DNA from: Myxococcota bacterium
GTDB lineage: Bacteria; Myxococcota_A; UBA796; CAJQPC01
Length of the DNA: 64,000 bases
Assembly: GCA_036012755.1 (NCBI GenBank)
Contig: DASCPX010000129.1
Span: forward strand, 128,001 to 192,000
Direction: 5' to 3'
Part shown: positions 3,001 through 63,921 of the stretch, one piece after another
How positions within the stretch are numbered: position 1 is the first letter of the stretch
Layout of the letters: every line of letters starts with the position of its first letter
The notes under the pieces: generated by a model
What the model was told of the DNA's origin: nothing
The model's database searches: none
Seen by the model: only the letters and a program-made list of their open reading frames with translations
Position numbers and translations under genes: made by a program

Positions 3001-4091
3001 GGGGTCGCGTACTCCTGGCCGTGGCTGTCCTTCCAGCCACCCTCGACCTTCACGGTGTACTCGGTCATCGGCTCCAGCCGGACTCCATGACTCCAGGTCC
3101 AGTAGCTGTAGGCCTCCGCGGGATCCCAGCCGTCCGGGGGTTCTGGGCTGATCGAGATCTTCGCTCCGAGCTCCGCGGCGTCCGTCACCGTCGCGAGCTC
3201 CAGGCGGATCGCCGTGTAGGGATCCACCTCCCTGCCCGTGGGTTGGTGATCGGCGATCCCCGGAGGTGGGTAGGTCGAGAACGACAGCTCGAGCTCGCTC
3301 CCGGTGCCGCGGGAGCCCTCCATCCCGGGCAGGCCGGCGGCCAGGACGAGCTGGTAGGACGTGTTCGGGGCAAGGGTCGCCTCGAGGAGCACGGCGCGCT
3401 CGAGCTCCTTGGGGATGCGCACGTCGTCGAGGCTCTCGGGCTCCGGGCGAGAGGCCGTGAACTGGATGGAGTTCCCGGAGGTGTCGGCGATCGTCGTGCG
3501 AACGCGCACTTCTTCGGGGTCGGTGGGCTGATCGAAGACCAGGAGGATCGGGTCCTCCGGGTTGGCCTGGTCGGTGCCCTCACGAGGCCAGGTGCGACGC
3601 AGTTCGGGTGGCGCGGTGTGGAAGGTCCAGCTGAGCGCTTTCTCCAGTGAGCTGCCGTCTGTGGCCACGGTGCCGGCGGGCACGCTGCAAGTGATGTTGG
3701 AGCTGCGGGGGAAGTGGCCGCCCTCGGGTGAGAAGACGGCTGTGGTGGTCCCTGCCCACCGGGCGAGGCCCTCGACGCTGTCGCAGGACAGCGGCACCGT
3801 CGCCTCGTCGATGCTCGTGAGCGCCGTGAGGGGCCTGTCGAAGACCACGATGGCTTGCATCGGTCGGGCCTGGTCGCCTGTCGGACCGACGAAGCCAACC
3901 TGCAGACCCGCGCCGACGTCGATCTCGCCGGCTGGCGAGAGGTCGCCTCGGCCTATTGGGAGGATCTCGGCGAAGAACGCGGCGGCCGGTTCCACCTCGA
4001 GCGCGCTCGCGGCAGCCTTCCGCTTGGGACCGAGTGTCCGGGTCTGGACGTCATCGTCGCCCCAGCACGCAAGGGCTAGCATGAGCAACAC
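1..4091 (-). CDS. Bacterial alpha-2-macroglobulin family lipoprotein (YfhM-like), 3' part outside the window
   Basis: Open minus frame running off the left edge, so absent from the ORF track. GTG start 4091 after GGAGGT; N-terminus MLLMLALAC (lipobox). Near 1-600 it reads LRSRFETTPLWEPDLEADAEGKVRVTFTLPDDLTTFRIMAV...QPALPRLLRVGD, the typical A2M domain; FTDRGVYKPGD (MG2) near 2240-2270. Confidence 0.9.
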   Translation of the reverse strand, partial: MLLMLALACWGDDDVQTRTLGPKRKAAASALEVEPAAAFFAEILPIGRGDLSPAGEIDVGAGLQVGFVGPTGDQARPMQAIVVFDRPLTALTSIDEATVPLSCDSVEGLARWAGTTTAVFSPEGGHFPRSSNITCSVPAGTVATDGSSLEKALSWTFHTAPPELRRTWPREGTDQANPEDPILLVFDQPTDPEEVRVRTTIADTSGNSIQFTASRPEPESLDDVRIPKELERAVLLEATLAPNTSYQLVLAAGLPGMEGSRGTGSELELSFSTYPPPGIADHQPTGREVDPYTAIRLELATVTDAAELGAKISISPEPPDGWDPAEAYSYWTWSHGVRLEPMTEYTVKVEGGWKDSHGQEYATPLEWSFTTGHMDPMVDAASGPKLYPSTNPTELPARTRNVSELSVGVKALTVDQVIAVLGGGSNLMDSRSRKVAKPEKLFTARAKDDSIHIDRIDLAPWLERGDTLLLVETSSPSVTRYDGSAYYQKALLQVSDLGTTVKAGPSGVTTWVTRLSDGEPVAGATVTLVRGRRNIWTGVTDDDGLAVSTDVVEPGWRYWSEPIFAVVQSDGDTAITSSDNPHDLYLWDFDLSYSGSADDDRELRTFSFTDRGVYKPGDTAHVAASARLANHEGLAIVPAEANWSCSDARGAVLLDGAATVDDGHLSFDVELPEEMAMGSAGCSIEFATKDGLQGSTYASVPVHTYRAPSFRVEVSADEHGIAGDELEATGTGNFLFGAAMGGAEARWVARASEVRPRPEGWDDFTFAGDESRGWWEREYQGIETLAEGTGVLDATGAIPFSVTVPVSDEARTLEVELEVQVTDSARQRVANRAHTLVHPASFYVGLRSTTGLGRAGEGAAFEFVTVSPEGTVQAGVPVDVVISRRTWDVVRKKGMDGYWTWESEPTDEAVETATVSSEETAAKVPFTPKEAGYYVISASAKDSEGRTSKGEAGLYVAGSGASWARGDDNLVELVPDKRSYAPGDTAKLLVKAPKEGMTALITVERERILDRRVVKLATAAETVEIPLTEQAAPNVFVSVLLTESAPPADSPDAGTPSWHLGYTELEVSAEGRHLDVAIESDDSVYQPGQNVTVDVSVTRNGSPAEGAQVVLYAVDHGVLSLTAYETPDPFDRYWRSHPLNVRTADSRRQVLDRGALLVKGAPAGGGGGDSGPALRSRFETTPLWEPDLEADAEGKVRVTFTLPDDLTTFRIMAVVLHEAEGFGSAEREIQVSRPLIAQPALPRLLRVGDRARAGIVVHNNVDEDREVAVVAEAVGVELIDGTTSVTVPARGNVEVAFELQEPEPGEAVFTFDVEAGPDRDRVEVTIPIERPIPVETVATAGTSAGEVTEHITMPKGAQPGVGG

Positions 4092-4126
4092 CGTGCACCT
4101 CCGAAGGGGGAGGATAGGGTACGGAG

Positions 4127-5239: not shown

Positions 5240-5245
5240 GGACGG

Positions 5246-5734: not shown

Positions 5735-5779
5735 ACTCTCTACGTATGCAGGATCGGGCCCTGCGGATACCCTCGCGGT

Positions 5780-6445
5780 GTGCTGTTGCTGTTTGCCTGC
5801 TCCGAGATCACCCCGATCGAGAGCGACGAGGACTTCACGAATCGCCTTCGCGACGAGGTCGCATCGCGCCTCACCGGGCACACGGTCGAACTCAGCGCCG
5901 AGCTCCAACTGAGCGTCACCGCACCCGACGGCTTCGAGCAGGAGCTCCACCTGGACTCTGTCCGAGCGGACTGCCTGAAGAGCCCTGATGGCTGCAAGCA
6001 GGCAGTGATCGCCTATGTCGATCGACAGGGGCGGATGGCCGAGGCCCGCTCCGAGCCCCTCCGCTTCGCGCTCTTGCGACCGATGCTCTTCAACGGCGGC
6101 GTCGCCCGCGCTCTCGAGCTGGAGCATCGCCCCTTCGTCGAGGACCTCGTCGTCGTGCTCGTCCTGGACAGCGACGACCGCACGCGCATCGTCGACACGA
6201 CCGAGCTTGCTTCCAGAGACTCCGACTTCGACACGGCGCTTTCCTACGCCATGGCCCAGCTGGGCACGGAGCCTCGCCGAGCTGCCGATCGCATGCTGGT
6301 CGCCGAGCTGTGGACCGACGAGTGCGTGAGGCCACTGTCCCCGGATTTGCTGTTGCTCGACGGGGAGCCCGAGCCGGCCTTGGAAGCTCCGAAGCTCTCC
6401 GAGCACCGCTTCTGTTGGCGAGGATCGAGCTGGATTCGGCTATGA
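5780..6445 (+). CDS. Hypothetical lipoprotein
   Basis: GTG start 6 nt after TACCCT; N-terminus MLLLFAC; coding-like codon bias from here on. Confidence 0.65.
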   Translation: MLLLFACSEITPIESDEDFTNRLRDEVASRLTGHTVELSAELQLSVTAPDGFEQELHLDSVRADCLKSPDGCKQAVIAYVDRQGRMAEARSEPLRFALLRPMLFNGGVARALELEHRPFVEDLVVVLVLDSDDRTRIVDTTELASRDSDFDTALSYAMAQLGTEPRRAADRMLVAELWTDECVRPLSPDLLLLDGEPEPALEAPKLSEHRFCWRGSSWIRL

Positions 6446-6473
6446 ACCGGTGCTTCCAGACGTTCTCGTGCAC

Positions 6474-11127: not shown

Positions 11128-11136
11128 CGGCGCAGG

Positions 11137-13349: not shown

Positions 13350-13357
13350 GGGGTCTC

Positions 13358-14764
13358 CTATTTGCCTTCGCCAGTGCATGTGATGGTCAGCCGTACGGTG
13401 TCTGTGTCGCTGGCGTTGCAGTCGGCCACGAGGAGCTCCAGGTCGTACTCGTAGGTCGCTCCGCTGTTGTAGACACCCGGCAGCGGCGGGGTCTGGACCG
13501 TGGTGGCGGCGGTGTACTCGGAGTCGATCGTCATCTCGCCGGTGGCCTCGGTCCAGCGGTAGGACAGCTGGTCGCCGTCTGGATCGAGTGAACCCGAGCC
13601 GTCCAGGTCGAACTCGAAGGAGGGGCAGTCCTCGCAGTTCCAGCCGCTGTAGCTGAGGCGCTCGCAGTCCGTGGTCGACGAGACGCTGTCCGCGGCGCCC
13701 GCGTTGGCGATGGGCGGCTCGTTCTCCGTGATGTCCGAGGTGGTCATCGTGACGACGTCGGGGGCCGACCACTGCGAGCCGTCGAAGACCTGCAGCTGGA
13801 AGGTGTAGTCCCCCGGGACATCCCAGGTGAAGGTCGCGTTGGGCAGGGTCGCGTCGTCGAAGTTCGCGTCCGTCGCGGTGGACTCGGCAGGGGCGGTGAC
13901 CAGCGACCACTGGTAGGTCAGCTCAGCTCCGTCGGGGTCCCAGGAGCCGTAGCCGTTGAGCGTCAGCTCGTTTCCGTCGCAGGGCGGCGCCTCGTCGGCG
14001 TCACCGGCGTCCGCGATGGGGGCGGCGTCGCCTTCGCTGCAGCTCACCGAGGCGTAGTCCGGCTCGGACCACTGGAAGCCATCGGAGACGACCAGGGAGA
14101 CGACGAAGACGCCTTCGCAGTCGCAGATGAGCGACGGTGTCGCCGTGCCCTGGTTGTAGAGGTCATCGCTCTCGAGCTCCGAGCAGTCGGGCGAGGACGA
14201 CAGCGCCCAGTCGAACTCGATCTCCTCGCCCTCTGGATCCGAGGAGCCGGAGCCGTCGAGGGTCACCCGGGTGTCGACCGAGGTGTCGTGATCCGGGCCC
14301 GCGTCGGCGATCGGTCTGGCGTCGCCGGGTGCGACGTCGATGATGACGATGTCCGGCTCGGAGCTCTCGAGGTCGTCGCTGACGACCAGCGCGAGCACGT
14401 AGGTGCCTGCGACATCCGGGACGAAGCTGGTCGCGACCGCTGTCGCCCCGTTGTTGTCGGTGAGCGCGACTTCGTCCACGATCGAGGCGGTCGGGACGGA
14501 CTCGAAGCTCCAGGCGTAGGCCGGAACGAACTTGTCCTGGGCGCAGCCTTCCGGGTAGCCGCTGGGGCCAAGCCCGTTCTCTTCGTCGATCTGGTCGCCC
14601 GAGAGCTCCGCCGTGACGCCGAGAGAAAGTGACTGGTCGGCGCCGGCGTATGCCACCGGCGCGCAGTAGGGATCGCCCGTGTCCACGTCCTTGTCGCAGC
14701 CCGCTGACAACAGCAGCGAGGCACCGATCAAGCCGAGGAGGGGCTTTCTGGTCTGGTCGAGCAT
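13358..14764 (-). CDS. PKD/REJ-like Ig-fold repeat lipoprotein (paralog of the adjacent gene)
   Basis: LSAGC lipobox; four PIADAG.D...LDGSGS.DP.G..L.Y.W-type repeats; Cys pairs. Confidence 0.85.
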   Translation of the reverse strand: MLDQTRKPLLGLIGASLLLSAGCDKDVDTGDPYCAPVAYAGADQSLSLGVTAELSGDQIDEENGLGPSGYPEGCAQDKFVPAYAWSFESVPTASIVDEVALTDNNGATAVATSFVPDVAGTYVLALVVSDDLESSEPDIVIIDVAPGDARPIADAGPDHDTSVDTRVTLDGSGSSDPEGEEIEFDWALSSSPDCSELESDDLYNQGTATPSLICDCEGVFVVSLVVSDGFQWSEPDYASVSCSEGDAAPIADAGDADEAPPCDGNELTLNGYGSWDPDGAELTYQWSLVTAPAESTATDANFDDATLPNATFTWDVPGDYTFQLQVFDGSQWSAPDVVTMTTSDITENEPPIANAGAADSVSSTTDCERLSYSGWNCEDCPSFEFDLDGSGSLDPDGDQLSYRWTEATGEMTIDSEYTAATTVQTPPLPGVYNSGATYEYDLELLVADCNASDTDTVRLTITCTGEGK

Positions 14765-21367: not shown

Positions 21368-21715
21368 ATGCTCGTCCTGCTCATGTCGCTGACTGGTTGC
21401 GGTCCGAACTGCCAGTCGACCTGCCAGCGTCTCTACGGTGACGGAGTTCAGACCGTCAACGGCGAGCAACAAGAGGACTGCGGGATCGAACGCGCGGGTC
21501 GGAAGAGCAACGACCTCGTCGACACCTGCATGGAAGAGTGCGACGACGCGCTGGACACACCCGGCGAGATGGGCCCCTACGATCCGTACACGCGGACCGG
21601 CTCCAACGAGTCAGTCGACCTCGACAACGAGCGCCAGGCGGCCATCTGGATGCAGTGCGTCGCCGAGACCAGCTGCGACCGCCTCACGGAGGGCTACTGC
21701 GCGCCGGTCTGGTAG
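21368..21715 (+). CDS. Small Cys-rich lipoprotein
   Basis: MLVLLMSLTGC lipobox plus 8 further Cys; strong SD. Confidence 0.75.
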   Translation: MLVLLMSLTGCGPNCQSTCQRLYGDGVQTVNGEQQEDCGIERAGRKSNDLVDTCMEECDDALDTPGEMGPYDPYTRTGSNESVDLDNERQAAIWMQCVAETSCDRLTEGYCAPVW

Positions 21716-21732: not shown

Positions 21733-21999
21733 ATGTTCTTCCTCAGCTTGCTGTGGGGCTGCAACGCCACCTGCTCCCAGGCCTGCAAGCGCCTGCTGGA
21801 GTGCGACGCCGTGGACACCACCGGCGTCGAGCGCGACCTCTGCGAGGAGACCTGCCGCGTGCAGGAGCAGACCTACGAAGACTGGGAGGACGAGGACCTC
21901 CAGGAGCGCTTCGACGAGGCCCGCAACTGCATCCGCGATTCGACCTGCGCGGACATCGCGGACGGTGTCTGCTACGACGAAGAGCTGTTTCCCTACTGA
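21733..21999 (+). CDS. Small Cys-rich lipoprotein, paralog of the upstream gene
   Basis: MFFLSLLWGC plus 8 Cys in the same spacing pattern. Confidence 0.7.
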   Translation: MFFLSLLWGCNATCSQACKRLLECDAVDTTGVERDLCEETCRVQEQTYEDWEDEDLQERFDEARNCIRDSTCADIADGVCYDEELFPY

Positions 22000-22975: not shown

Positions 22976-23278
22976 GGCGAGGAAGCTCCGGTGGGCGTCC
23001 GTCGTCTCCGCGTGGGGGCTGCCTGTCGTGCTCCCGCGGAGCCCCGGAACCCCAGTGCTGTCGAGCTCCGCTCCGGCGTGGCAGTGGGCGCAGCCGTCGT
23101 GGAGGAAGGCCTCCAGTCCAGCGAGCTCCCCGGCGCTCAGGCTGTCCTCGCCAGCGAGCCAGCGGTCGAAGCGGGTGTCTCCGGCCGGGGCGAAGACCTT
23201 CGTCGCCCGCTCGCGCAGGTCCGGCTCGCGGTGGGTCTCCTCGACGTCTCCGGAGCAGGCGATCAGCAAGATCAGCAA
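22964..23278 (-). CDS. Miniature monoheme cytochrome c lipoprotein (cytochrome c peroxidase C-domain remnant)
   Basis: MLILLIAC; TRFDRWLAG..LS..EL.GL..F...GCAHCHAG and VPGLR match the CcP/MauG second domain. Confidence 0.6.
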   Translation of the reverse strand: MLILLIACSGDVEETHREPDLRERATKVFAPAGDTRFDRWLAGEDSLSAGELAGLEAFLHDGCAHCHAGAELDSTGVPGLRGSTTGSPHAETTDAHRSFLASVR

Positions 23279-38160: not shown

Positions 38161-38226
38161 GCCCTCTTGTAAGGTGTGGCGGTCGAAAGTGTGAAGCTGA
38201 TCTAAAGGCGAGGTTCCACGGGCCGT

Positions 38227-39075: not shown

Positions 39076-39084
39076 AGGGCGTGG

Positions 39085-41316: not shown

Positions 41317-41317
41317 A

Positions 41318-42439: not shown

Positions 42440-42558
42440 GCTCGGATCCTACGGGGAGCCCAGGCCATTGTTGCTTCGGGGCGGGCTTCTCTGCCCACTG
42501 CAGGCGTGGCGGAATCGGGCGGAAGGTCGCGGAGTTGGTAACATCCGTCCTCGCTCCG

Positions 42559-44329: not shown

Positions 44330-45625
44330 TCAGTACATGTAGCCCAGCGCCTTGAGTCTGTTCGCGTCGAGCATTCGACGTTCGTCCTCTTCCTCTGGCG
44401 CCGGCTCGACCAGCTGGTCCCGGTAGAACTGGACCGCCTCCAGCTCGTCGTCGAGGTCCCCCTCGATCATCACCTCCGAGAACTCGATCAGCGTCTCCTC
44501 CAGGACCTGGGCGGCCTCCTCGGCCTGACCTTGGGCCTGCAGGTCCACCGCCCGCTCCAGGGCCTTGCCCGCGGAGGCCTGGGCTGCCTTCGAGCGGCGG
44601 CGCGCGCTGGCGGCAGATGCTGGGGCCGGTTGCACATCCTCGGTGGCGATGCGCGTCGTGATCTTGCCCTCCTTGCCGTCCTTTTCGCCCGTCGCCGGGT
44701 CCCGCCAGCGGATGTCGACCGCCGCGACGTCGATCTCGCCGCGGAGGTGGCCAGGGACGCGCACCTTCGCGACCACCTTGCGGGGCTCTCCAGCCTGCAT
44801 GTCGCCCAGCAGGATCCGCCACCCGCCGTCGATTGCGTAGCCGTCGTACTCCTCGTAGCCAAGGACCTCGACGAGCTCGACGCCGTCGCCGAGCTGCAGC
44901 TCGACCGTCGTAGAGAGCGCCGCGACCTGCTGCATGCGCTCCAGCTCCTCGTCGAACAGCGCCACGACCTCTTCCGGGTCGTTGCCGTAGCGGTAGATGC
45001 CGCCGCCGGCGTCGGCGATGGCGATGAGCGTGGGCGCATCGAACTCGAGGCCGAGCCCCACTGTGCTGACCGTGACCCCCGCCTGCTGGGCGTCGGTGGC
45101 CAGGCCAGCGAGGGTGCGGCGATCGGTGGGACCTGCGGTGGCCTCGCCGTCGGACAAGAGCAGCACGCGCCGTCGCGGGTTGTCCAGGAAGCGCTGGAGC
45201 TGGTCCAGCCCCTGCTGCAGACCCCCGTAGATGTTCGTACCGCCCTGGGGTGTGAGCAGACCGATCGCATAGACGACCTCTGCGGGGTTGAGGATGCGGC
45301 CCTGGCGGCGCACGACCTTGGGCTCGCTGCCGAAGCCGATCAGCGACAGGGTGTCCCCGGGACGCAGGCGATCCACCAGCTTCGAGGCGGCCGCGCGCGC
45401 GTACTCCAGCTTGCCGCGGTCCTTCATCGAGCCAGAGGTGTCCAGCACCAGGGACTGGTGGGTGGGTCGTTCGGCCGCATCGGGATCGATCTCGGGCGCC
45501 TGGACCTCGACCACGAGCCACTGCGTGAAAGCACTCTCGTTGGTGGGGACGAGGACATCGACGTCGAGACCGGCGTCGAACGACATGGTGTCCTGCGCGA
45601 GGCAGAGGGAGACGAGCGCGAGCAT
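44330..45625 (-). CDS. Secreted vWA domain protein (YfbK-like)
   Basis: LVLDTSGSM MIDAS, GGTN, LLSDG and IADAGGG.Y motifs; signal MLALVSLCLA. Confidence 0.9.
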   Translation of the reverse strand: MLALVSLCLAQDTMSFDAGLDVDVLVPTNESAFTQWLVVEVQAPEIDPDAAERPTHQSLVLDTSGSMKDRGKLEYARAAASKLVDRLRPGDTLSLIGFGSEPKVVRRQGRILNPAEVVYAIGLLTPQGGTNIYGGLQQGLDQLQRFLDNPRRRVLLLSDGEATAGPTDRRTLAGLATDAQQAGVTVSTVGLGLEFDAPTLIAIADAGGGIYRYGNDPEEVVALFDEELERMQQVAALSTTVELQLGDGVELVEVLGYEEYDGYAIDGGWRILLGDMQAGEPRKVVAKVRVPGHLRGEIDVAAVDIRWRDPATGEKDGKEGKITTRIATEDVQPAPASAASARRRSKAAQASAGKALERAVDLQAQGQAEEAAQVLEETLIEFSEVMIEGDLDDELEAVQFYRDQLVEPAPEEEDERRMLDANRLKALGYMY

Positions 45626-47455: not shown

Positions 47456-48212
47456 GCGGGGTTCCGGGGCCATAGCCCACGTCCACGAGGAAGCCGCCGT
47501 CGTCGTCCTCGCAGCCGCGGTTGTAGCCGCTCCAGGTGCTCATGCTCTCGCCCAGGTGCGCGATGGCGATGCTGTTGCAGAAGTCGGGATCCAGGTGGTC
47601 GAGGAGCTCGCCATCCAGGCTCGGGGCGTTGGTCGTGACGGCCAGGTCGACGAGGGCTTCAGGGTCCATCTCGAGGGCCACGACCTCGGTCCCTCCCCAG
47701 GTCACCGTGCTGAACTCGAAGCTCGCCTCCTCCTCCCCCACCGCTCGTGTGTATGCGAGGTAGCTGTCCTCGCTGGGGGCGTCGGTCGGGCCGAAGAAGA
47801 GGACGTAGCTGCCCGAGGGCGCGCCGGTGACGGTGCCGGTGACGGTCATCGACTCCGTCGCGTAGCCGTCGAGGCTGCGCTGGTGGGTCCGGAGGTCCAG
47901 CGGCATCGTCACCTCCGACAACACGACCCCGGAGTAGGTGACAGCCATGTGGTCCTCGGCTGCGACCGTGATGCTGACGGGCACATCGCCGGGCAGTCCA
48001 GGCATGGAGAAGGAGCCGTCGGCGCCGGTGCGGATGCTCAGCTGCTCGTCTGTGGTGTCGATCAGCACCCAGGCCCCGTCGACGGGCAGCAGGTCGAGGT
48101 AGGGATCGGTGACGGTCCCGCTGAGCTCGACGGTCGGCTCGGACTCGGCTGAGTCGTTGTCGGCGGGGCCTCGACCACAGGCGAGGATTGGGGCGAGGAG
48201 GAAGGTCTTCAT
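47406..48212 (-). CDS. Carboxypeptidase-regulatory-like (Cna-B type) domain lipoprotein
   Basis: MKTFLLAPILAC; LSGTVTD...PVDGAWV...TGADGSF; the last ~17 codons look out of frame. Confidence 0.65.
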   Translation of the reverse strand: MKTFLLAPILACGRGPADNDSAESEPTVELSGTVTDPYLDLLPVDGAWVLIDTTDEQLSIRTGADGSFSMPGLPGDVPVSITVAAEDHMAVTYSGVVLSEVTMPLDLRTHQRSLDGYATESMTVTGTVTGAPSGSYVLFFGPTDAPSEDSYLAYTRAVGEEEASFEFSTVTWGGTEVVALEMDPEALVDLAVTTNAPSLDGELLDHLDPDFCNSIAIAHLGESMSTWSGYNRGCEDDDGGFLVDVGYGPGTPHGADRPDHIGARRRQP

Positions 48213-48330: not shown

Positions 48331-51300
48331 ATGTTGTTGCTGCTGGCCTGCACCGGGCCCGGTCCCGAGCCGACGGTCATCGAGTCCGTCGAGGAGACCG
48401 ACAGCTTCATGCTGCACGGCCTCGAGTGCCGGGCACATGTCGTGCGCACCGAGCTCGATGTGCCCCACATCTATGCCTACACGCGCGAGGACGCCGCGAG
48501 GGTCTTCGGCTTCACCATCGCGCGCGACCGCTACTTCGAGATGGAGCTGGCCCGTCGACTGGCCACGGGAGAGATCAGCAACCTGCTCGGCGACGCCGCC
48601 CTGGAGACCGACATCGAGTCCCGCGGGCAGGGCAGTCGGCACGTCGCCGATCGCCTCTTTGCATCGCTCACCACCGAGCAGGAGCTGGAGATGGCGGCCT
48701 TCGCAGAGGGCGTCAACAGCTACATCGCCCTGGTGGCGCTGGAGCAGCACGCCGCTCCGAGCGAGCTGGACTTCGCCTTCGCCCTGCTCGGGGGGGACTC
48801 CCCAGCGGCGCTCATGGAGCCCTGGACCAGCTACGACGTCGCCGCGGTCGGGGCGACCATCATCTACAACCTCGGCTACGAGACCGGTGACGTCGGCCGC
48901 GCCTACACCGAGTCGGTCCTGCCCGATCTCTTCGCGGGCGCCGCCCTGGAGGACCTGCGTCAGGCCGGTGTCTATGACGATCTGTGGCGGCCCGTGGCTC
49001 CGCCGGCGCCCTACGCCTCCGCGCCTGGCTGGGGCCTCAACGAGGGCTACCGCGACGCCATCCCACAGCGAGAGCGGCGCATCGACGCGCCCCAGAGCTT
49101 GCTGAAGCGCACCTCCGAGCGCCTCGCCCGCCGCCAGGCGGCGATGGGCCGCGACTGGGACATGGGCTTCGGCTCCAACGTCTGGGCTGTCGACGCGGAC
49201 CACTCGGCGGACGGTCGCGCGCTGCTCGCGGGTGACGGGCACCTACCGCTCGACATCCCCTCGCTCTTCTACAGCTTCGGCGTCGACACCAAGCTCCTGG
49301 GCGGCGGGGACATGCGCCAGGTCGGCGTCACGATCCCGGGCTTCCCGATCATGGCGGTCGGCACAAACGGTGACATCGCCTGGGGCCAGACCCAGCTGAT
49401 GGGCGACATCACCGACTGGTACACGGAGGAGGTCCAGCTCGACGCCTCCGGCGAGCCCTCCGCGGTGTTCCACGACGGCCAGTGGAAGGACCTCGTCAGG
49501 ATCGAAGAGGTCTACGAGGTGGCGGACGTGCCCTCCCTCGGCTCGACCGGGCGGACCGAGACCTGGGCCCGCTGGGAGACATGGGACGGCCGCTGGCTCG
49601 CCGACATCGAAGGCGCCAGCGTGGAGAAGGAGGAGGCCGTCGTCACGATGCAGGGGGACTGGCTCGTGCCCGGAGACACGGACGGGGACGGGGTCATCAC
49701 CGGCATCACCTTCGACTACGCAGGCCTGGATGACGCCAACATCCTCCTCGCCAGCCAGCGCATGGGCGAGTCCAGGAGCGTCGACGAGTACCGGGACGCG
49801 ACCCGAGGTCTGGTGGCCTACTCGCAGAACCTCATCGCCGCAGACTCCGCCGGCGACATCTTCTACACCGGGTACCAGGCCGTTCCCTGCCGGGAGTACC
49901 TCGATCGCAACGGAGACGGAAGCTGGACAGAGGGCAGCGACCCCTCCCAGCTCCTCGACGGGACCAGGTACGGTGGGTTCTCCATCGAGGTCGACTCGGA
50001 CGGCTACGTCGTCGAGGACGGCGAGCACTGCGTGGTTCCATTCGACGAGTATCCGCAGGCCAAGAACCCCGCGAGCGGGTACCTGCTCAACGCCAACAAC
50101 GACCCGGGCAACATCAGCCTCGACGACGATTTGTTGAACGATCCGTGGTATATCGGCGGTTCCTGGATCGAGGGATACAGGGCCGTCCGCATCGACACCT
50201 TCCTCGCCGATGCCACACAGAATGACTGGGCTGACGTCGACGGGATGAGCGCCATCCAAGGGGACACGCGGAGCTCCCTCGGCGCGCAGTTCTCTCCGGT
50301 GCTGATCGAGGCCATCGAGCTGGCAGCAGCGCTCTCTGAGGTCGATCGTGAGCTCACGGATGACGAGCAGCGTCTCTTCGATCTGTACGAGTCCGACGCC
50401 CCGGCCATCGACGAGGTCCACCAGAGGCTGCTCGACTGGGCCGCAGAGGATCACCCGACGCCAGCCGGCGTCGACGCCTTCTACCACCCGCTGCTCGACG
50501 GCGAGGAGGACCAGGCGGTCGCGACCATGCTCCACAACGCCTGGTTTGGTCGTTTCGTGTCAGGAGTCTTCTCGGACGAGGGCCTCCCGGACGTCTGGGA
50601 GCCCACCGGCGGGACCGGACAGACACGCGCGCTCACCAAGCTGATCGACGGGCGCGGGCCGGACAACCCCGAAGGGCTCTCCTCCTGGAACGCTGACACA
50701 GAGGAGAGCGCCTTCTTCGACGTGCTCGGGACCGACGAGGTCGAGACCAGCCACGAGGTGGCCCTGAGCGCCCTGCTCGACGCCCTCGTCTTCCTGCGCT
50801 CGGCGCCAGAGGACGACTCGCTCGGCGGCTTCGGCACAGAAGAGATGAGCGAGTGGATCTGGGGGTACAAGCACGTCGTGCGCTTCGAGTCCATCCTCGC
50901 CGGCTTCCTCGGCGACGACCCGACCTACTCGGTCATCACCGACCAGTTCTCGATCACCACGGAGACCCTGCCGCTGGCCAGCGGGATGGCGCCGACGGAT
51001 CCACGCGCTGACCTCGTCGGCTTCCCGCGCCCCGGTGACACCTTCAGCGTCGACGCGGCGAACAACGGCTTCTCGCACAGTGACTTCGACCACGGGAGCG
51101 GTCCGGTCTTCCGAATGGTCATCGCGGTCGGCGGCGAGGACGATACCGTCGGCGTGAACATCATCCCAGGTGGCCAGTCGGGCATGACGGACTCAGCGCA
51201 CTTCTCCGACCAGGCGGCGCTCTGGCTCGCCAACGAGACCCTCCCCATGCGCCTGTCTCCAGAACAGGTGGTCGACGGCGCCACGGGACGCGAGGCCTAC

Positions 51301-51336
51301 CATCCCGGCCGCGGCGGAAATCTGTGTGGCTTCTGA
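48331..51336 (+). CDS. Penicillin/AHL acylase family (S45 Ntn hydrolase) lipoprotein
   Basis: VPHIYA, RDRYFEM, GSNVWAV (N-terminal nucleophile Ser), NANND and PGGQSG motifs. Confidence 0.92.
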   Translation: MLLLLACTGPGPEPTVIESVEETDSFMLHGLECRAHVVRTELDVPHIYAYTREDAARVFGFTIARDRYFEMELARRLATGEISNLLGDAALETDIESRGQGSRHVADRLFASLTTEQELEMAAFAEGVNSYIALVALEQHAAPSELDFAFALLGGDSPAALMEPWTSYDVAAVGATIIYNLGYETGDVGRAYTESVLPDLFAGAALEDLRQAGVYDDLWRPVAPPAPYASAPGWGLNEGYRDAIPQRERRIDAPQSLLKRTSERLARRQAAMGRDWDMGFGSNVWAVDADHSADGRALLAGDGHLPLDIPSLFYSFGVDTKLLGGGDMRQVGVTIPGFPIMAVGTNGDIAWGQTQLMGDITDWYTEEVQLDASGEPSAVFHDGQWKDLVRIEEVYEVADVPSLGSTGRTETWARWETWDGRWLADIEGASVEKEEAVVTMQGDWLVPGDTDGDGVITGITFDYAGLDDANILLASQRMGESRSVDEYRDATRGLVAYSQNLIAADSAGDIFYTGYQAVPCREYLDRNGDGSWTEGSDPSQLLDGTRYGGFSIEVDSDGYVVEDGEHCVVPFDEYPQAKNPASGYLLNANNDPGNISLDDDLLNDPWYIGGSWIEGYRAVRIDTFLADATQNDWADVDGMSAIQGDTRSSLGAQFSPVLIEAIELAAALSEVDRELTDDEQRLFDLYESDAPAIDEVHQRLLDWAAEDHPTPAGVDAFYHPLLDGEEDQAVATMLHNAWFGRFVSGVFSDEGLPDVWEPTGGTGQTRALTKLIDGRGPDNPEGLSSWNADTEESAFFDVLGTDEVETSHEVALSALLDALVFLRSAPEDDSLGGFGTEEMSEWIWGYKHVVRFESILAGFLGDDPTYSVITDQFSITTETLPLASGMAPTDPRADLVGFPRPGDTFSVDAANNGFSHSDFDHGSGPVFRMVIAVGGEDDTVGVNIIPGGQSGMTDSAHFSDQAALWLANETLPMRLSPEQVVDGATGREAYHPGRGGNLCGF

Positions 51337-52859
51337 TCCTGGGTTGCGGAGGCTCCCCGGTCGGTCCAGAGGTCGACTCCCAGGAGCCCGAACGTGCCCA
51401 GAACGTGCTGGTGGTGGTGTTCGACGATGTCGGCGTCGACAAGGTCTCGAGCTACGCCGACGACTTCCCGGAGTATGAGCCCGAGTACCTTCCCAACACA
51501 CAGACCTTCGACCAGGTCGGCGCGGCGGGTGTGCGCTTCACGGAGGTGTGGTCCGCTCCGTTGTGCTCGCCGACGCGAGCCAGCATCCTCACCGGTGTGC
51601 ACCCGTATCGGCACGGGGTCGGGACCGTCGTTCCGCAGGGCCCGCCGCTCTCGACAGACGCCGTCACCCTCCCTGAGTTGGTGCCCGAGACCCACACCAC
51701 CGGACTCTTCGGCAAGTGGCACCTGGGCATCAGCGGGTTGGACACCGACGCGGTGCCGCACCCGGAGTGGGACGCGGAGGCGGACGGGCACACCCGTGAA
51801 GACCCAGGCTCGATCAAGCACACACTCAATCCCATCCAGCAGGGCTGGGACCACTACGCGGGGGGTTTGTCCGGCACGGTCTGCACGATGGTCCTCGATG
51901 GTGACTGTGTGGGCGGGTACGACCACTGGATCCTCACCCGGGGTTCGGCCGAGACTCCCGGGGTCACGAAGCTCTGGTGGGAGGATGGCTACGCCACCGA
52001 GGTGGAGGTGGACGACGCCCTCGCATGGATCCGGGAGCAGGAGGGACCATGGGTCACGATGCTCGCGTTCCACGCGCCCCACCAGCCCTCTCACGGGACC
52101 GCGCGTTTTGGTTGCCAGCGGACGACCGTCCTCCCCTCTCCGAGGCCCAATCGCGTCGCGCTGTACGTCGGCATGTTGGAGTGCGCTGACACCCACCTGG
52201 AGCGCATGCTCTGGGAGCTCGATGCCATGGGCGAGCTCGACGACACGCTGCTGGTCGTCGCGGGGGACAACGGAGTCGAGACCTTCCTGCGCGAGTCGAT
52301 CATGGGAGCCGACAGGACGATCAAGGGGACCGCCTACGAGAGCAGCGTGCACGTACCGCTGGCGATCTCGACTGGAGCCTCCTGGGCCTCGGTCGCCAGC
52401 GGGGGCGAGCCCCTCGAGAGTGACCATGTCGCCCTGCCGGGCCGCACGGTCGACCAGATGGTGCACACCACCGATCTCTTCGCGACGGTGCTGGAGTGGG
52501 TCGGCGGTGACCGCTCGGGGGGTGTGGACTCCCTGAGCCTGGCGCCCCTGCTCCGGGGTCCCTCGGTGGAGATGCCCCGGGACTTCCTCTACACCGAGCG
52601 CTTCATCCCCTCGGATGACTTCGGGCTCTTAGGTCTGGCTGCCATCCGGGACCCGGAGGGCAACAAGCTGGTCGCGGACGTGCATCCAGAGGAGGAGGCG
52701 CTCTGCCGGGAGCTCCAGCTCTTCGAGGACGGCCCGGTCGATTTGCTCGATCGCTATGGCGATGCCGAGCTGGCAGAGGTCCAGGAGACCCTGGAGGGCG
52801 AGCTCGCTGCGCGCATCGAAGACGGCGCCGCGTGGCTCGACCACCCTCCCTGCCCCTGA
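51324..52859 (+). CDS. Cys-type (formylglycine) sulfatase lipoprotein
   Basis: NVLVVVFDDVG, CSPTRASILTG, GKWHLG, FHAPH, GDNG and KGTAYE motifs. Confidence 0.92.
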   Translation: MWLLILGCGGSPVGPEVDSQEPERAQNVLVVVFDDVGVDKVSSYADDFPEYEPEYLPNTQTFDQVGAAGVRFTEVWSAPLCSPTRASILTGVHPYRHGVGTVVPQGPPLSTDAVTLPELVPETHTTGLFGKWHLGISGLDTDAVPHPEWDAEADGHTREDPGSIKHTLNPIQQGWDHYAGGLSGTVCTMVLDGDCVGGYDHWILTRGSAETPGVTKLWWEDGYATEVEVDDALAWIREQEGPWVTMLAFHAPHQPSHGTARFGCQRTTVLPSPRPNRVALYVGMLECADTHLERMLWELDAMGELDDTLLVVAGDNGVETFLRESIMGADRTIKGTAYESSVHVPLAISTGASWASVASGGEPLESDHVALPGRTVDQMVHTTDLFATVLEWVGGDRSGGVDSLSLAPLLRGPSVEMPRDFLYTERFIPSDDFGLLGLAAIRDPEGNKLVADVHPEEEALCRELQLFEDGPVDLLDRYGDAELAEVQETLEGELAARIEDGAAWLDHPPCP

Positions 52860-55900: not shown

Positions 55901-56049
55901 TCGACGTCTACGACGACTCGGCCGAGACCGCGCGGCTCAGGCTGCAGGAGCTGGATCCCGACAGTCACCAGCCCACCTACGAGGTGCTTCCGGAGAAGAC
56001 CTGGACCAGCGGCGTCACCGTGCGCGCCGGCTTCGAGGAGGAGCTGTGA
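52999..56049 (+). CDS. Large periplasmic TPR protein, GltD/AgmU-like
   Basis: Signal MTLLLSLVLSSALA; LMLRLADLY...YPRADEAQFYLA...ALYKLAWCYYNVG TPR arrays; ~1016 aa, followed by a TPR lipoprotein as in myxobacterial gltD-gltE. Confidence 0.75.
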   Translation: MTLLLSLVLSSALAEDDGDVRRARRTVDVEMAERAAQTELAKAEATRKRHLEMEAAERLLSENRSLSSDQRADLMLRLADLYFREGRASYLDEMLPYTEAVDACFDDPDCPDTSNIVPDHTESSGWHAKSIRLYRIILDNYPHYPRADEAQFYLASALDDLDRDDEALKEYVRLVRSYPESTYAPNAYMMIGEIQFEEGEVYRALLAYKKTTAYRHHQYYSLALYKLAWCYYNVGEYGLALDTLKRVITWSDDTLEGKDNRGAFDLREDAYRDLVRFCADGGDLDECVHFIKARGRDDLVRDTMVRLGSTYLEQGKNEEAMRLYKRLIASDPTHLDAAGYQGEIVQISVRMGRVEETVDELNRLRRDYGGTSSWAQANAVEPEEVQEVQDQTARRIAKTAIEWQKEARRLGTGPRAKRLYEASDSLYAVYRRDFPEGEHLYDVTFAHAELQYVTGQKELAFFSYMAVLEMDHRGKSSLFAAEAAIKTAGVLAGTPGAPDGRDVIALDEWEANYLRALDRYAELYPEGEKRQFALYKAAWLLYHHNDFVKAAERFRVVIALDPRSKEAEYAANLILDGLALVEDWGTLRETALYFFEMDGLGGTTFKQTCANVYERASFKLIEVDREQSGDDVAAADALVAFAGEFPQSDVADLALNNAAVWFTEGGRRADAMRTRRLLLDGYPTTRFAADTIVALAFDHEAIGRFERSAELYEALAAEYPKHDSATTALYSAALFRKALGQNEQALDDTRRLLAMDPDRDDARILELQVARLHRALGDERAAEGTLRVMLAADPDPELRMVAYLELSEVAGDPAAVRAEALAYVVEEGLDSPQVKEIAGRLRFEQGADDWKAYTELRIPGPSTIGSPKQQNIVLADQLLRKTESLATIEAHSAAVIETGSGPWGVAALVRLGAAYEDYAVTIEESWIPDYLTEEQKGMYRQDLADRSALIRLKSQAAYEAAMAEAIRLDVYDDSAETARLRLQELDPDSHQPTYEVLPEKTWTSGVTVRAGFEEEL

Positions 56050-56879
56050 TGTTGTTGCTGCTGGCCTGTGTCAAGCTCACCGTCATCGAACCGTTGGCCG
56101 CGCCGCACCTCGAAGAGGTCGCTGAAGTGGTCGAGATCGTTACCGTCGAGGTCACCGATCCAGCGACCCTCTACTCTCGGATCGCAGCTGATGGCGCTGA
56201 TGGAGAGGCCTGGATGGCCCTGGCGCGGTGGCACTTCCAAGAGGGCAAGATCGACGTCGCCGAGATCTGCGCCAGCCGGGCGGCCGCGCTCGGCGTCACC
56301 GACCCATCGCTGGACAACGACCGTGGCGTCGCCGCGCTGGAGGCGGGTGACACCCCGCGGGCGCTGCGGTCCTTCCGAGATGCCCTCGAGGCGGACCCTG
56401 GGCACGTCGACGCGAACCTGAACATCGCGGCGCTGGCTCTGCGCGCCGCCGACTTCGACGAGGCGCGCTCGCGCTTCTCGGTCGTCTTGAGGCAAGACCC
56501 GACACACGAGGAGGCCATGATAGGCCTGGGCGCTGCCCTTGCTGGTCTAGGCGAGATCGACGCGGCCATCGCCGAGATCGACGGCTACCTGGTCGCCGCC
56601 CACGCGCCGGACCCGGACGCCTACCGCCTGCGGGACTCGCTGGTGCTGGCTCGGGATGCGGAAGTGCAGGCCCTGGTCGTCAAGCGCATGGCCGAGAAGC
56701 AGGCCGAGGCGGACGCCTCCTTCCTGGCTGGCTACCTCGAGGGGCTCGAGGGCTGTGACCCCCTGATCCTCGACCACTTTCGAGAGGTCGTCGCCAAGGG
56801 GGACCCTGCCGAGCTAGCCAGCACCGTCGCCTACGTCAACGAGGATCCGGACGGGCTGAGGTCGATGATCTGTCCATGA
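56046..56879 (+). CDS. TPR lipoprotein, GltE/AglT-like
   Basis: GTGA overlap with the upstream stop; MLLLLAC; NDRGVAAL, ANLNIAALAL and AMIGLGAAL TPRs. Confidence 0.7.
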   Translation: MMLLLLACVKLTVIEPLAAPHLEEVAEVVEIVTVEVTDPATLYSRIAADGADGEAWMALARWHFQEGKIDVAEICASRAAALGVTDPSLDNDRGVAALEAGDTPRALRSFRDALEADPGHVDANLNIAALALRAADFDEARSRFSVVLRQDPTHEEAMIGLGAALAGLGEIDAAIAEIDGYLVAAHAPDPDAYRLRDSLVLARDAEVQALVVKRMAEKQAEADASFLAGYLEGLEGCDPLILDHFREVVAKGDPAELASTVAYVNEDPDGLRSMICP

Positions 56880-56895
56880 GTTAGCTCTGGCGGCG

Positions 56896-58821: not shown

Positions 58822-58881
58822 GGTGCCCCCATAACGAGGCGGTCCCGAGCCGACCGTCTGCCCGCGACGTATGCTCCCGCG

Positions 58882-59823
58882 ATGATCCTGTGGACCCTCG
58901 CCTGCACCGCTTCTTCAGATGAGCGGACCCCCGTGCCCGACACGGACGCCGCCGTCGACTCCCAGCCCCTGCCGGACCCGATGGAGCTGGGCAGCCGGGT
59001 CTCCGAGGACAACCTCACTGCCACCATCGGGGCTCTTCAGGACATGGGGACGCGGTACACGGCGACGCAGGGAAACAGCGACGCCCGGGACTGGCTGACC
59101 ATGCAGCTCGAGGACTACGGTTACCTGGTCGAAGAGGACCCCTTCTCCTTCGACGGGACCGACGCGGTCAATCTCGTCGCGCGCAAGGAGGGCTCCGCCT
59201 CTCCGGACGCGGTCTGGATCCTCTCGGCCCATTACGACTCGACCTCCACCCAAGCCGCGACCAACGCTCCTGGCGCCGACGACAACGCCTCCGGTGTCGC
59301 CGTGGTCCTGGAAGCGGCGCGGATCCTCGCAGAGGTGGAGCTCGAAGACAGCGTGTGGTTCGTCCTCACCGGTGCCGAGGAGCAAGGGAGCAAGGGCTCC
59401 GCCCACATGGTCGACTGGCTCGACGCGCAGGGGGTCGAGGTCCAGGGCGTGATGGCCCCCGACATGGTCGGCTACTGGCCGTTGGGCGAAGGTGACGCGA
59501 TGGACATCCTCGGTGACTCCGACTCTCAGTTCCTCGTGGACCACATGGCCGCGATGGCCGACGCGATGGGGGTGGCCAACAAGACGTGGATCCGACACGG
59601 TTACTGCTACGGCGATGATCACACGAACTTCCAGGAGGCCGGCTACCCGGCGATCTCGCCCATGGACTGCGTCGAGGCTCACAACGTCCCCTCGTCCGGT
59701 GAGGAGCTACCTCACTACCACCAGACCACTGACAGCCTGGACACGCTGCACATGCCCTTCACGACCCGGGTCGCGCAGGTGATGGTCGCTACCGTCGCGG
59801 ACTGGGCGGAGCCCATGCGCTGA
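58882..59823 (+). CDS. M28 family aminopeptidase lipoprotein
   Basis: SAHYDS, PGADDNASG, AEEQG, DMVGY, DH and YH Zn ligands; MILWTLAC 6 nt after TATGCT. Confidence 0.92.
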   Translation: MILWTLACTASSDERTPVPDTDAAVDSQPLPDPMELGSRVSEDNLTATIGALQDMGTRYTATQGNSDARDWLTMQLEDYGYLVEEDPFSFDGTDAVNLVARKEGSASPDAVWILSAHYDSTSTQAATNAPGADDNASGVAVVLEAARILAEVELEDSVWFVLTGAEEQGSKGSAHMVDWLDAQGVEVQGVMAPDMVGYWPLGEGDAMDILGDSDSQFLVDHMAAMADAMGVANKTWIRHGYCYGDDHTNFQEAGYPAISPMDCVEAHNVPSSGEELPHYHQTTDSLDTLHMPFTTRVAQVMVATVADWAEPMR

Positions 59824-59839
59824 GCTTCACCTTCGTGGG

Positions 59840-61930: not shown

Positions 61931-63921
61931 GTCTCGCGGCGGCGGAGTGCCGCCGCCAGGATCACGCCGAGGCCCATTCCAGCCGGGAGGAAGAGACCGA
62001 TGCCCACCACCACCCCGGCGCCGAGTCCAATTGCGAAGGGCCACTGCTGCGGCCAGCCGAGCTCCGTCTCACGGGTCAGCGTGTAGCCCGACCACGTCCA
62101 GATCTCGTCCACGTCCGCCTGGTAGGCGGCGAGGTCGTGGACGTCGACGCGGTCTTTCAAGACGACGAGATCGTAGCGTTCCTCGACCCGGGCCTTCGAG
62201 ATCTCGGTGGTCACCGTGAAGCGGAACCACTCGTTGTCCACGCTGCCTGTGCGGTCCTCGAAGACCCAGTCGTCCGGCACGTCGAGCACCAGCGTGTCCA
62301 CCTCGTGGAGGCCGAGGGGGAGCGCCAGCTGGGTAGTGCGGTGCTGCTCCGGGTATGGCAGCGCGTCGAAGAGGGTGAGCTCGAAGAGCGGGAAGGACTC
62401 GCCCCCGGCCGGGTCCGGCTGCCAGGCACCGACGACACGGTAGGCCTCGCTCAGCTCGATGACGTTGGCGTCCCGATCGTCCTGGATGCCCGCGGCCTCC
62501 AGGCTGATCAGGCTCTCTCCGGTTCGCTCGAGCTGGCTTCGGAGCTGATCCTGGAGGACATCGTGGCTCGTGGACGCGAACCAGGCGCGGAGGTTGTCGG
62601 CCCGCATGCCCTCGGCACGAGTCACGGTCCGCAGCGTCGGTGAGAGCATGGCGTCGACGGTGTAGTGCCAGCGGACTTCTGAGAAGCCGACCCTGGCCGG
62701 CCCCATGTCGACCAGCTCGGTGGTCCCTGGTCGGACGAGCAGGGCCTGGCCATAGGCCGGCGTGTAGCGCTCGGCGGCGGCACCCCCCTGGAGCCGGTAG
62801 GTCGGGTCGACCCAATGACCACCGTTGTCGTCCTCGACATGGACGATGAGGTGGTCGAAGGCGCCGGGGCTCGGCGCCCAGGTCTCCACCGGGCGGGCCT
62901 CTGAGGAGACCAGGGCCGGCCAGGCATCGATGCCCACCTCGCGCAACAGCGCCACCAACAGCAGGGTCTTGTCCTTGCAGTCGCCGTAGCGGTTCTCCAG
63001 CACCACGCCGGGTTGCCGGGGGACGTGGCTCCCCTCACCGAGCTCCAGTCCGAGGTAGCGGACATCGTCCTGGACCCAGTCGAGCGCGGCGGTCTCGTAG
63101 TCTGCGCCAGAGGTCCGGAGCTGCTCGACGAGCTCGTCGAGTCCCCCCCTGTCCTCGATCTCGTAGAGGGGAAGCGCCCACTGGACGACCTCTGCCCAGG
63201 ACTGGAACTCGGAGGCCTGGACGAAGGGCGCGCTCAGGACATCAGGTGGAGCGCCCCAGAGGGTCGGCCAGGCCGGCACGCCCCCTATCCACCACACCCA
63301 CTCGTGCTCCCCCTTCACCAGGCCGGAGCTGATGCCGTGGGCCTTGACGTCGAGCGGGCGGTCCTCTGCGGCCCGGATGTGGAGGTAGCGCTGGGAGACA
63401 GGCTCTGACCAGCCCATCGAGAAGGAGTCGAACCAGCGGCCCTGGAAGACCGGGTCGTGGCTCTCGATGCTGTAGCTGTAGCGGAGCACGTCTCCGACAG
63501 AGAGCTGGGGGACCAGGGCGACGAAGCTCCTCCGGCCCGACAGCAGGCCGAGCCAGAGCTCGTCCTCTGGCTGGATCAGCGCCGTGTGGGCGTCTTCGAT
63601 GCGGTCGCTCCAGCTCCCGTCCCGGTAGACGGAGATGTCGTGGAGGTGGATGAGCTCCGTGTCCGGATCGAAGTCGATCTCGACACGCCCGCCGTTGTCC
63701 AGGCCCTCGTGCGTCACGATCCGGTAGGCGCGCTGTACGAAGCGCGTGGCGCCGCCGTCGGCCTCGAAGCGCGTCTGGTCGTCGCAGAGGAGGTACTGGG
63801 TGGAGGCGAGGCTCTCCCCGCTCGGCACCGGGAGGTCGACAGCCACCTCGATCGGGACGACCCAGTCCGGGATCGGATCCTCGACCACCTCTGCACGAGC
63901 CAGTGTCAACAGTGCGAACAC
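61927..63921 (-). CDS. DUF3857 + transglutaminase-like domain protein with C-terminal TM
   Basis: GDVLRYSY; WVQDDVRY...RYGDCKDK (Cys), FDH (His), VDPT (Asp); signal MFALLTLARA. Confidence 0.9.
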   Translation of the reverse strand: MFALLTLARAEVVEDPIPDWVVPIEVAVDLPVPSGESLASTQYLLCDDQTRFEADGGATRFVQRAYRIVTHEGLDNGGRVEIDFDPDTELIHLHDISVYRDGSWSDRIEDAHTALIQPEDELWLGLLSGRRSFVALVPQLSVGDVLRYSYSIESHDPVFQGRWFDSFSMGWSEPVSQRYLHIRAAEDRPLDVKAHGISSGLVKGEHEWVWWIGGVPAWPTLWGAPPDVLSAPFVQASEFQSWAEVVQWALPLYEIEDRGGLDELVEQLRTSGADYETAALDWVQDDVRYLGLELGEGSHVPRQPGVVLENRYGDCKDKTLLLVALLREVGIDAWPALVSSEARPVETWAPSPGAFDHLIVHVEDDNGGHWVDPTYRLQGGAAAERYTPAYGQALLVRPGTTELVDMGPARVGFSEVRWHYTVDAMLSPTLRTVTRAEGMRADNLRAWFASTSHDVLQDQLRSQLERTGESLISLEAAGIQDDRDANVIELSEAYRVVGAWQPDPAGGESFPLFELTLFDALPYPEQHRTTQLALPLGLHEVDTLVLDVPDDWVFEDRTGSVDNEWFRFTVTTEISKARVEERYDLVVLKDRVDVHDLAAYQADVDEIWTWSGYTLTRETELGWPQQWPFAIGLGAGVVVGIGLFLPAGMGLGVILAAALRRRET

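Follow-up and report, generated by a model that had tools for sequence, protein, structure and literature searches.

Exported and lipid-anchored bacterial proteins are conventionally expected to begin with a basic n-region followed by a hydrophobic core of membrane length, and this premise is built into textbooks, PROSITE-style rules and lipoprotein pattern searches. The hydrophobic region (h-region) of a lipoprotein signal spans about 7–22 residues. The Sec system of Escherichia coli also accepts defective or very short hydrophobic signals, as seen with prl alleles of secY and with engineered minimal poly-Leu signals, and hydrophobicity can offset lost charge. The canonical lipoprotein signal used here for comparison follows the definition in PMC9360617, and in lipoproteins of the Gram-positive genus Parageobacillus the lipobox Cys lies on average at residue 21.4 ± 2.7 (PMC13068155). 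Here we examine a 64-kb stretch of DNA (the window; positions 128,001–192,000 of contig DASCPX010000129.1, with a G+C content of 0.67–0.71) from an uncultured marine myxobacterium-like bacterium, whose assembly (labelled G000) comprises 6.73 Mb in 250 contigs. Many genes in this window, and about 8% of all genes in the genome, begin with uncharged leaders of 7–12 residues that end in a lipobox cysteine and have roughly one third of the length of a textbook signal peptide. Judging from sequence, these are probably true starts encoding pared-down Sec/lipoprotein signals (Met, four to nine mostly Leu residues, then Ala/Gly/Ser-Cys) that would use the ordinary Lgt/LspA pathway. A full-text search of the literature, with subscription journals outside its coverage, returned no account of a proteome-wide use of uncharged leaders with at most 12 residues.

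Compared with the Lpp-type Sec/signal peptidase II (SPase II) signal of E. coli, the short leaders share an N-terminal position and a hydrophobic stretch that runs into a lipobox (Leu at −3, Ala, Gly or Ser at −1 and Cys at +1), and the genome encodes both Lgt and LspA. They differ in lacking a basic n-region, in placing the cysteine at residue 6–12, in their shorter hydrophobic run and in the dominance of Leu at −2. Sec/signal peptidase I (SPase I) signals offer a second parallel, in that an uncharged hydrophobic run, ending in a small-x-small site and followed by acidic residues, opens three proteins of the window and, genome-wide, 107 of 4979 open reading frames (ORFs). However, the short leaders of this type have only 9–13 residues and are without an n-region. 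The prl alleles and poly-Leu constructs show the same trend of hydrophobicity substituting for charge, but those are laboratory-made, whereas the leaders described here are natural and proteome-wide and occur with a SecY that matches that of E. coli at five of six pore-ring residues and at F286.

An earlier note on this DNA had listed 15 window genes that begin with a lipobox cysteine at residue 7–12, and all 15 are found where it placed them. Ten start with ATG (21368, 21733, 25379, 35422, 39085, 42439, 48212, 48331, 56049 and 58882), four with GTG (4091, 5780, 38160 and 51324) and one with TTG (23278); the earlier note had given each of them as Met. Just one leader contains Lys or Arg, as that note had said; this is MKTFLLAPILAC at 48212. 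The note had also named two PKD proteins of the window as canonical lipoproteins. Both exist, and one of them (14696..14764, − strand) has a canonical 23-residue leader, MLDQTRKPLLGLIGASLLLSAGC, with Cys at residue 23.

To extend the comparison to the genome, coding ORFs of G000 were picked by a third-codon-position G+C content (GC3) rule rather than by a trained gene finder, which gave 5059 ORFs, 4979 of them with an upstream stop. The first possible start was defined as the first in-frame ATG, GTG or TTG after that stop. The distribution of first-cysteine position and charge that the earlier note had called for places a lipobox Cys at or before residue 12 in 409 of the 4979 ORFs, and 397 of these 409 leaders lack Lys and Arg. 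A further 52 ORFs have the cysteine at residue 13–16, 184 at 17–35 and 59 beyond, although some ORFs counted in these longer classes are short leaders extended too far upstream. A stricter form (Met, three to nine uncharged residues, then [GAS]C) occurs in 380 of 4973 first-possible-start peptides versus 306 of 75940 internal start-like codons, a control that is itself contaminated by true starts lying behind long open upstream frames. Within this set of 380, the cysteine is found at residue 6 in 6 cases, at 7 in 67, at 8 (the mode) in 138, at 9 in 87, at 10 in 47, at 11 in 25 and at 12 in 10, and the start codons are ATG (238), GTG (128) and TTG (14). The nucleotide pattern ATG(NTN)5GCNTGY, which encodes Met, five hydrophobic residues and Ala-Cys, has 42 matches in G000 versus 6 and 7 for two decoys and none for a reversed control. 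The short lipobox leaders are therefore more frequent than chance controls.

A check of the lipobox that avoids circularity was made by dropping the rule at position −1, which left 416 uncharged N-termini whose first Cys lies at residue 6–13. Even when unforced in this manner, position −1 is Ala, Gly or Ser in 390 of the 416 (292, 51 and 47, respectively), and position −3 is Leu in 245; at residue 2, Leu (176), Ile (78) and Phe (37) are prominent. The leaders thus present a Leu-type residue at −3, a small residue at −1 and an invariant Cys at +1. In contrast, the Lys or Arg expected before the core of a canonical signal is absent in 397 of 409 leaders genome-wide and in 14 of 15 in the window. 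An RR-type motif of the twin-arginine kind falls within the first 25 residues in only one of the 409.

Evidence that the short starts are real comes from several features of the surrounding DNA. Six of the 15 window starts are the first ATG, GTG or TTG after a stop. Five of these (23278, 39085, 42439, 48331 and 51324) had been singled out in the earlier note as having no upstream in-frame start, which holds, and 35422 is a sixth. An in-frame stop lies exactly three codons upstream of 39085, 42439 and 48331, and the sole alternative for 56049 is a GTG one codon upstream. For the remaining eight, the closest alternative start is 18–208 codons upstream. Genome-wide, 109 of the 380 short-leader ORFs have a stop zero to three codons upstream, and in 76 it is exactly three. 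This preferred spacing arises because a weak T-A-G-G motif occupies positions −12 to −9 of the 380 starts; the ribosome-binding region often itself provides the stop that fixes the short-leader start. In-frame GC3 is flat at 0.60–0.63 over the 40 codons before short-leader starts, rises to 0.83–0.91 from codon 1 and stands at 0.91 in codons 1–5. The short leaders are thus located at the true precursor N-terminus of a large core of these proteins. In addition, contigs from the sequencing runs of four studies match the start regions at 38160, 39085 and 42439, which argues against assembly error.

The shortest leaders are also the most hydrophobic. From the longest to the shortest class, the uncharged run becomes richer in Leu and more hydropathic, its Leu fraction and mean hydropathy going from 0.30 and 2.10 (Cys 17–35) through 0.33 and 2.26, then 0.41 and 2.46, to 0.51 and 2.95 (Cys at or before residue 8). 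The run before the cysteine averages 5.7 residues for Cys at or before residue 8 (n = 187) and 7.7 for Cys 9–12 (n = 222), lipobox residues counted, versus 11–13 in relatives, and an h-region of membrane length is therefore lacking. The mature N-terminus is acidic, with a net charge of about −2 over the 15 residues after the cysteine in every length class and in low-trait relatives (those with few such leaders). Residues +2 to +16 are enriched relative to mid-protein sequence in Asp/Glu (0.195 versus 0.148) and Pro (0.131 versus 0.052) and depleted in Lys/Arg (0.056 versus 0.092). A charge difference across the core therefore persists without Lys or Arg.

The trait is lineage-specific, being concentrated, in the genomes surveyed, in some lineages of one order. 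Among 151 genomes of the order, ATG(NTN)5GCNTGY has at least 20 matches in 33 and none in 35, with a maximum of 103. Counts are high (hereafter high-trait) in the genus of the window (42, 48 and 42), in genus g6 (44–90), throughout family f7 (33 genomes, with up to 103) and in parts of family f6, and they are low (0–4) in most of families f2, f3 and f5. Outside the order, 257 genomes (14 of the same class and 243 from the rest of the phylum) have only 0–4 matches. On a tree of SecY sequences, whose nearest named records are metagenome-assembled genomes labelled Proteobacteria or Myxococcota bacterium, the high-trait states fall into at least three separate groups.

Comparison genomes were fetched as samples and passed through the same ORF pipeline. 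These include a high-trait genus of the same family as G000 (G039), a low-trait genus of that family (G015), a member of another family of the order (G094), a member of another class (G356), and members of two further high-trait families of the order (G112 and G081). Per 100 ORFs, the classes with Cys at or before residue 12, at 13–16 and at 17–35 number 8.2, 1.0 and 3.7 in G000, and 9.7 (22 of 227 ORFs), 1.8 and 5.3 in G039. The corresponding values are 2.2 (6 of 279), 5.7 and 6.1 in G015, and 2.3 (6 of 262), 4.2 and 6.1 in G094. Lipobox-type N-termini total 13–18 per 100 ORFs in all four genomes alike, which is a very high share. Because this total is constant while the classes shift, the short leaders replace longer ones rather than forming an added class. 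The strict GC3 filter left few ORFs in G356 (14), G112 (51) and G081 (129), and a relaxed filter, which lets in more false ORFs, was applied to them. With this relaxed filter, the shortest class in G356 amounts to 3 of 331 ORFs, all of which carry Lys or Arg, and short uncharged leaders compare with Lys/Arg-bearing leaders of 13–35 residues as 31 versus 15 in G039, 6 versus 26 in G094 and 5 versus 30 in G015.

Low-trait relatives have short leaders of their own, such as MRSLFLILPLVAC and MRALPLLFGLAAC, which come from the same order and protein families and share the lipobox and the acidic mature N-terminus. However, these retain one Lys or Arg after the Met (23 of 27 members of the 13–16 class in G015 and G094), and their core is about twice as long. 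Among the 30 orthologous loci of the penicillin-amidase protein, high-trait genera have MLLLLAC, MLLLLLSAC, VLFLMLAC and MLLLLLGC, whereas other genera carry longer leaders (MRSSPLLFVLAAC, MRSTLPLLALLAQLAC, MRAPVLLLLLAVPGVLTSC and MARPLSRLLLLALPLSGC). These leaders form a graded shortening series, for example from MRSSPLLFVLAAC to MLLLLAC. For alpha-2-macroglobulin, uncharged leaders of 9–11 residues occur in 8 of the 12 loci read, the low-trait genus g4 included; exceptions are one canonical 25-residue leader and one N-terminal membrane anchor.

The SPase I-type leaders that the earlier note had described as equally short are present in the window at 45625 (− strand), 63921 (− strand) and 31185 (+ strand). 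By a crude rule, all three have a hydrophobic core and a small-x-small site and no n-region. Such leaders number 2.15 and 2.2 per 100 ORFs versus 0.7 and 1.15 in relatives, a contrast that is weaker than for the lipoproteins and based on small numbers. An even cruder class (hydrophobic from residue 2–3, with no lipobox) gave 6.25, 3.96, 1.79 and 4.96 per 100 ORFs; it did not separate high-trait from low-trait genomes and was set aside for the stricter SPase I-like rule.

The genome encodes both Lgt and LspA. Matches above the curated cut-offs were found for LspA (PF01252, two) and Lgt (PF01790, five), and SecY and Ffh are also present. Canonical leaders persist in G000 alongside the short ones. 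The idea that genes with canonical leaders are foreign was rejected, as their GC3 (0.904 versus 0.910) gives no compositional sign of it, although the set classed as unambiguously canonical still includes some cases with an internal short start. SecY (L041:1303-2634, + strand) was aligned to E. coli SecY through PDB chain 5abb_A and is the same at I82, I86, I191, I278, I408 and F286. The E. coli pore ring, which we take to comprise six residues including I187, is thus kept at five of six positions.

The observed starts, motif, enrichment, lineage distribution, orthologue series and machinery are what pared-down signals on a conventional route would produce, and from them we infer export, lipidation, cleavage and hydrophobicity compensation for the short leaders. 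The nascent chain would enter the general SecYEG channel, Lgt would add diacylglycerol to the cysteine, LspA would cleave before it, and the protein would remain lipid-anchored in the envelope. Ancestral proteins were probably already short-leadered, with 13–16 residues and one Arg. Certain lineages of the order then probably lost the n-region stepwise while the core was roughly halved, with a richer Leu content and greater hydrophobicity probably offsetting the loss. The same pathway would still handle canonical leaders, and no dedicated LspA or Lgt paralogue or SecY change would accompany the trait.

Several observations weigh against this interpretation. At about 5.7 residues, the hydrophobic run falls short of what a bilayer-spanning helix needs. 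A search for RNA runs that contain positions 38000–43000 of the window listed none. Leu, which is outside the usual lipobox set at −2, occupies this position in 266 of the 416 unforced N-termini. The ORF calls depend on the GC3 rule, which was loosened for genomes at 61–65% G+C, and the surveys of the order and phylum use a single narrow pattern that requires an ATG start with Cys at residue 8 and Ala at −1. Furthermore, low-trait relatives also hold a few short uncharged leaders (5 of 279 and 5 of 262 ORFs), and in small samples from the two other high-trait families the contrast with Lys/Arg-bearing leaders is weaker (8 versus 10 in G112 and 7 versus 17 in G081). The length problem also permits a more tentative proposal, which we regard as possible but doubtful, that a signal of less than membrane length works unlike the textbook hairpin. 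On this view, the channel would be opened by an uncharged Met-Leu(n) stub with a formyl cap, which would then lie entirely within the outer leaflet, where Lgt and LspA act on it, with a SecY pore that is loosened throughout the order (Ala or Ser at the position of I187) being permissive.

Alternative explanations were also weighed. If the starts were artefacts, translation would begin upstream, at ATG, GTG, TTG or a rare CTG, and produce ordinary leaders with a basic n-region. Upstream in-frame starts do exist for eight of the 15 window genes, including a TTG 18 codons before 21368 with Lys, Glu and Arg between, but a stop is found zero to three codons upstream in 109 of 380 ORFs, and exactly three codons upstream in three window genes. 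Likewise, translation that begins at the first possible start yields 209 plus 34 lipobox ORFs genome-wide with Lys or Arg in an n-region, and a number of these may be genuine; however, GC3 stays flat up to the short start codon and only then steps up, and the identical pipeline applied to relatives yields mainly Lys/Arg leaders of 13–35 residues. The Arg-rich in-frame translation that is common just upstream of short starts (strings such as RR or SKERP) is a read-out of GGAGG or AAGGAGAGG ribosome-binding sites or of an overlapping upstream gene, and independent contigs agree with the short starts. In a large core of cases, wrongly called starts are excluded, and as a general account we consider them exceedingly improbable. 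The tag might instead not be a cleaved Sec signal at all, acting as an uncleaved leaflet anchor, as a site of Cys acylation on the cytoplasmic face or as a substrate of another translocase. A core too short for a transmembrane helix would suit this idea, and strict conservation of the cysteine also fits other Cys-directed modification. Against it, residues −3, −1 and +1 match the LspA/Lgt lipobox without being forced to, the cargo families are of extracytoplasmic types, orthologues in relatives have ordinary lipoprotein leaders with the Cys at the same place, the total of lipobox ORFs holds constant while the short class grows, and a twin-arginine-like motif is nearly absent. The lipobox, the cargo and the orthologues make a role outside Sec unlikely, and we assign it a very small chance.

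A different objection accepts the Sec route for pared-down signals but holds that so short a tag works only through lineage-specific remodelling of the targeting and lipidation machinery (SecA, the signal recognition particle (SRP), SecY, Lgt and LspA). The earlier note had favoured this view. Its minimal Met-hydrophobic-Cys tag fits all the sequence tests made, but the adapted machinery that it took the tag to imply finds no support in the comparisons made, which covered LspA and Lgt copy numbers, SecY columns (with only five independent contrasts) and the M domain of Ffh. A five-residue core is admittedly hard to square with unmodified machinery, and G000 has a tandem lspA-lspA-lgt-lgt array (G000:C59:100000-102591) with three more Lgt matches elsewhere. 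Yet LspA matches number 1–3 across the 151 genomes of the order without tracking the trait, the genus with the strongest trait (two genomes) has one, and Lgt matches number 3–6 in each of two sets of 15 genomes, one high-trait and one low-trait, so that multi-copy Lgt is order-wide; copy number was therefore dropped as a correlate. The position equivalent to I187 (residue 180 of G000 SecY) is Ala or Ser throughout the order, whereas 49 of 78 other bacterial records have Ile there, but the small residue is common to high-trait and low-trait genomes. Thr is found there in 11 of the other records, mostly labelled Alphaproteobacteria or Rhizobiales-type, in which leaders are assumed to be ordinary. 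In a column screen of 27 and then 76 SecY sequences, residues 114, 22, 225, 87, 365 and 308 of G000 SecY separate high from low trait. At the best of these, residue 114, a small amino acid occupies 26 of 33 high-trait rows and 2 of 31 low-trait rows, but this represents about two clade events, and E. coli has Gly there. An independent-pairs test of the 76 sequences gave no direction for the columns listed, with only five contrasts and hence little power. No gross change was seen in the M domain of Ffh, which is intact in three high-trait and two low-trait genomes, and canonical leaders are still used in the same genome. Overall, remodelling seems unlikely to us, and the Ala or Ser at the I187 position could be a permissive background that is unlinked to the trait within the order.

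Two further observations concern SecY itself. The Ala or Ser equivalent to I187 is accompanied by Thr at the F192 equivalent in all but one of the 27 SecY sequences of the order that were examined first. The exception belongs to G058 (family f2), which has two full-length SecY matches (loci L038 and L065), one of them on a long branch (0.73) with Ile at the I187 position. This copy may be a second, divergent SecY.

If short leaders function as proposed, the lineage would offer a natural system for testing how little SecYEG, Lgt and LspA truly require, and the graded series in relatives would allow the evolutionary path to be traced. Present annotation is predicted to undercount exported and lipid-anchored proteins in these genomes. 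Very short export and lipidation tags might also serve engineering, provided that they work in other hosts. Should the outer-leaflet stub mode prove true, the minimal requirements for Sec targeting and for Lgt/LspA recognition would be rewritten, and standard predictors would be missing much of the envelope proteome of the order.

By Pfam, the window genes that carry these leaders include members of families of extracytoplasmic types, namely alpha-2-macroglobulin, two sulfatases, GH31, penicillin amidase, M28 peptidase, Ig-like/ASH and CarboxypepD_reg proteins. On the − strand, MLLMLALAC (4065..4091, Cys 9) begins a bacterial alpha-2-macroglobulin of 1363 amino acids with Pfam A2M domains, which has GGAGG just upstream and its nearest alternative start 51 codons up. 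MLILLIAC (23255..23278, Cys 8) precedes a 104-residue protein and has AGGAG upstream, and MLVVLALAC (25353..25379, Cys 9) a 126-residue protein with a weak MopE-type metal-binding motif, whose nearest alternative start is 208 codons up. MFWLLLAC (38137..38160, Cys 8) opens a 398-residue sulfatase whose Pfam match begins at residue 14. MTALILLAC (42413..42439, Cys 9) starts a 373-residue protein with a weak FG-GAP match, and contigs of runs X5, X8 and X9 show zero differences from it. The Lys-containing leader (48177..48212, Cys 12) belongs to a 268-residue CarboxypepD_reg-domain protein.

On the + strand, MLLLFAC (5780..5800, Cys 7) begins a 221-residue protein with no Pfam family, at which GC3 changes from 0.57 upstream to 0.87 downstream; at MFFLSLLWGC (21733..21762, Cys 10), the start of an 88-residue protein, it changes from 0.53 to 1.0. 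MLVLLMSLTGC (21368..21400, Cys 11) leads a Cys-rich protein of 115 residues with AAGGAGAGG upstream, and the TTG noted above makes this start ambiguous. A GH31 glycosidase of 743 residues has MLLLFLAC (39085..39108, Cys 8), with TAG as the stop three codons upstream and agreement from contigs of runs X5 and X7. The 1001-residue penicillin-amidase family protein begins with MLLLLAC (48331..48351, Cys 7), and its stop three codons upstream is TGA. MILWTLAC (58882..58905, Cys 8) precedes a 313-residue M28 peptidase.

The three SPase I-type leaders all begin at the first possible start. They are MLALVSLCLA (45596..45625, − strand), on a 431-residue von Willebrand A protein with a stop three codons upstream; MFALLTLARA (63892..63921, − strand), which starts with GTG, on a 664-residue DUF3857/transglutaminase protein; and MFIALISLVHSA (31185..31220, + strand), on a 193-residue C92 amidase.

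Two of the short-leader genes overlap their upstream neighbours. MWLLILGC (51324..51347, + strand, Cys 8), the leader of a 511-residue sulfatase, starts 13 bases inside the 3' end of the amidase gene. The second MLLLLAC (56049..56069, + strand, Cys 7), on a 276-residue TPR protein, has an ATG that overlaps the TGA of a 1097-residue TPR/YfiO-like gene, forming TGATG. Both overlaps suggest translational coupling. Finally, MWILLMAC (35422..35445, + strand, Cys 8) opens a frame (35422-36699) that is interrupted after 19 codons by an in-frame TAG (35479-35481). Beyond this stop, the reading frame runs on unchanged into a 398-residue HYDIN/VesB-like protein with Ig-like and ASH domains, for which the first possible start is GTG at 35503. 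The TAG is also present in the contig of run X5, with zero differences, and could reflect a pseudogene, a population-wide nonsense allele or read-through.

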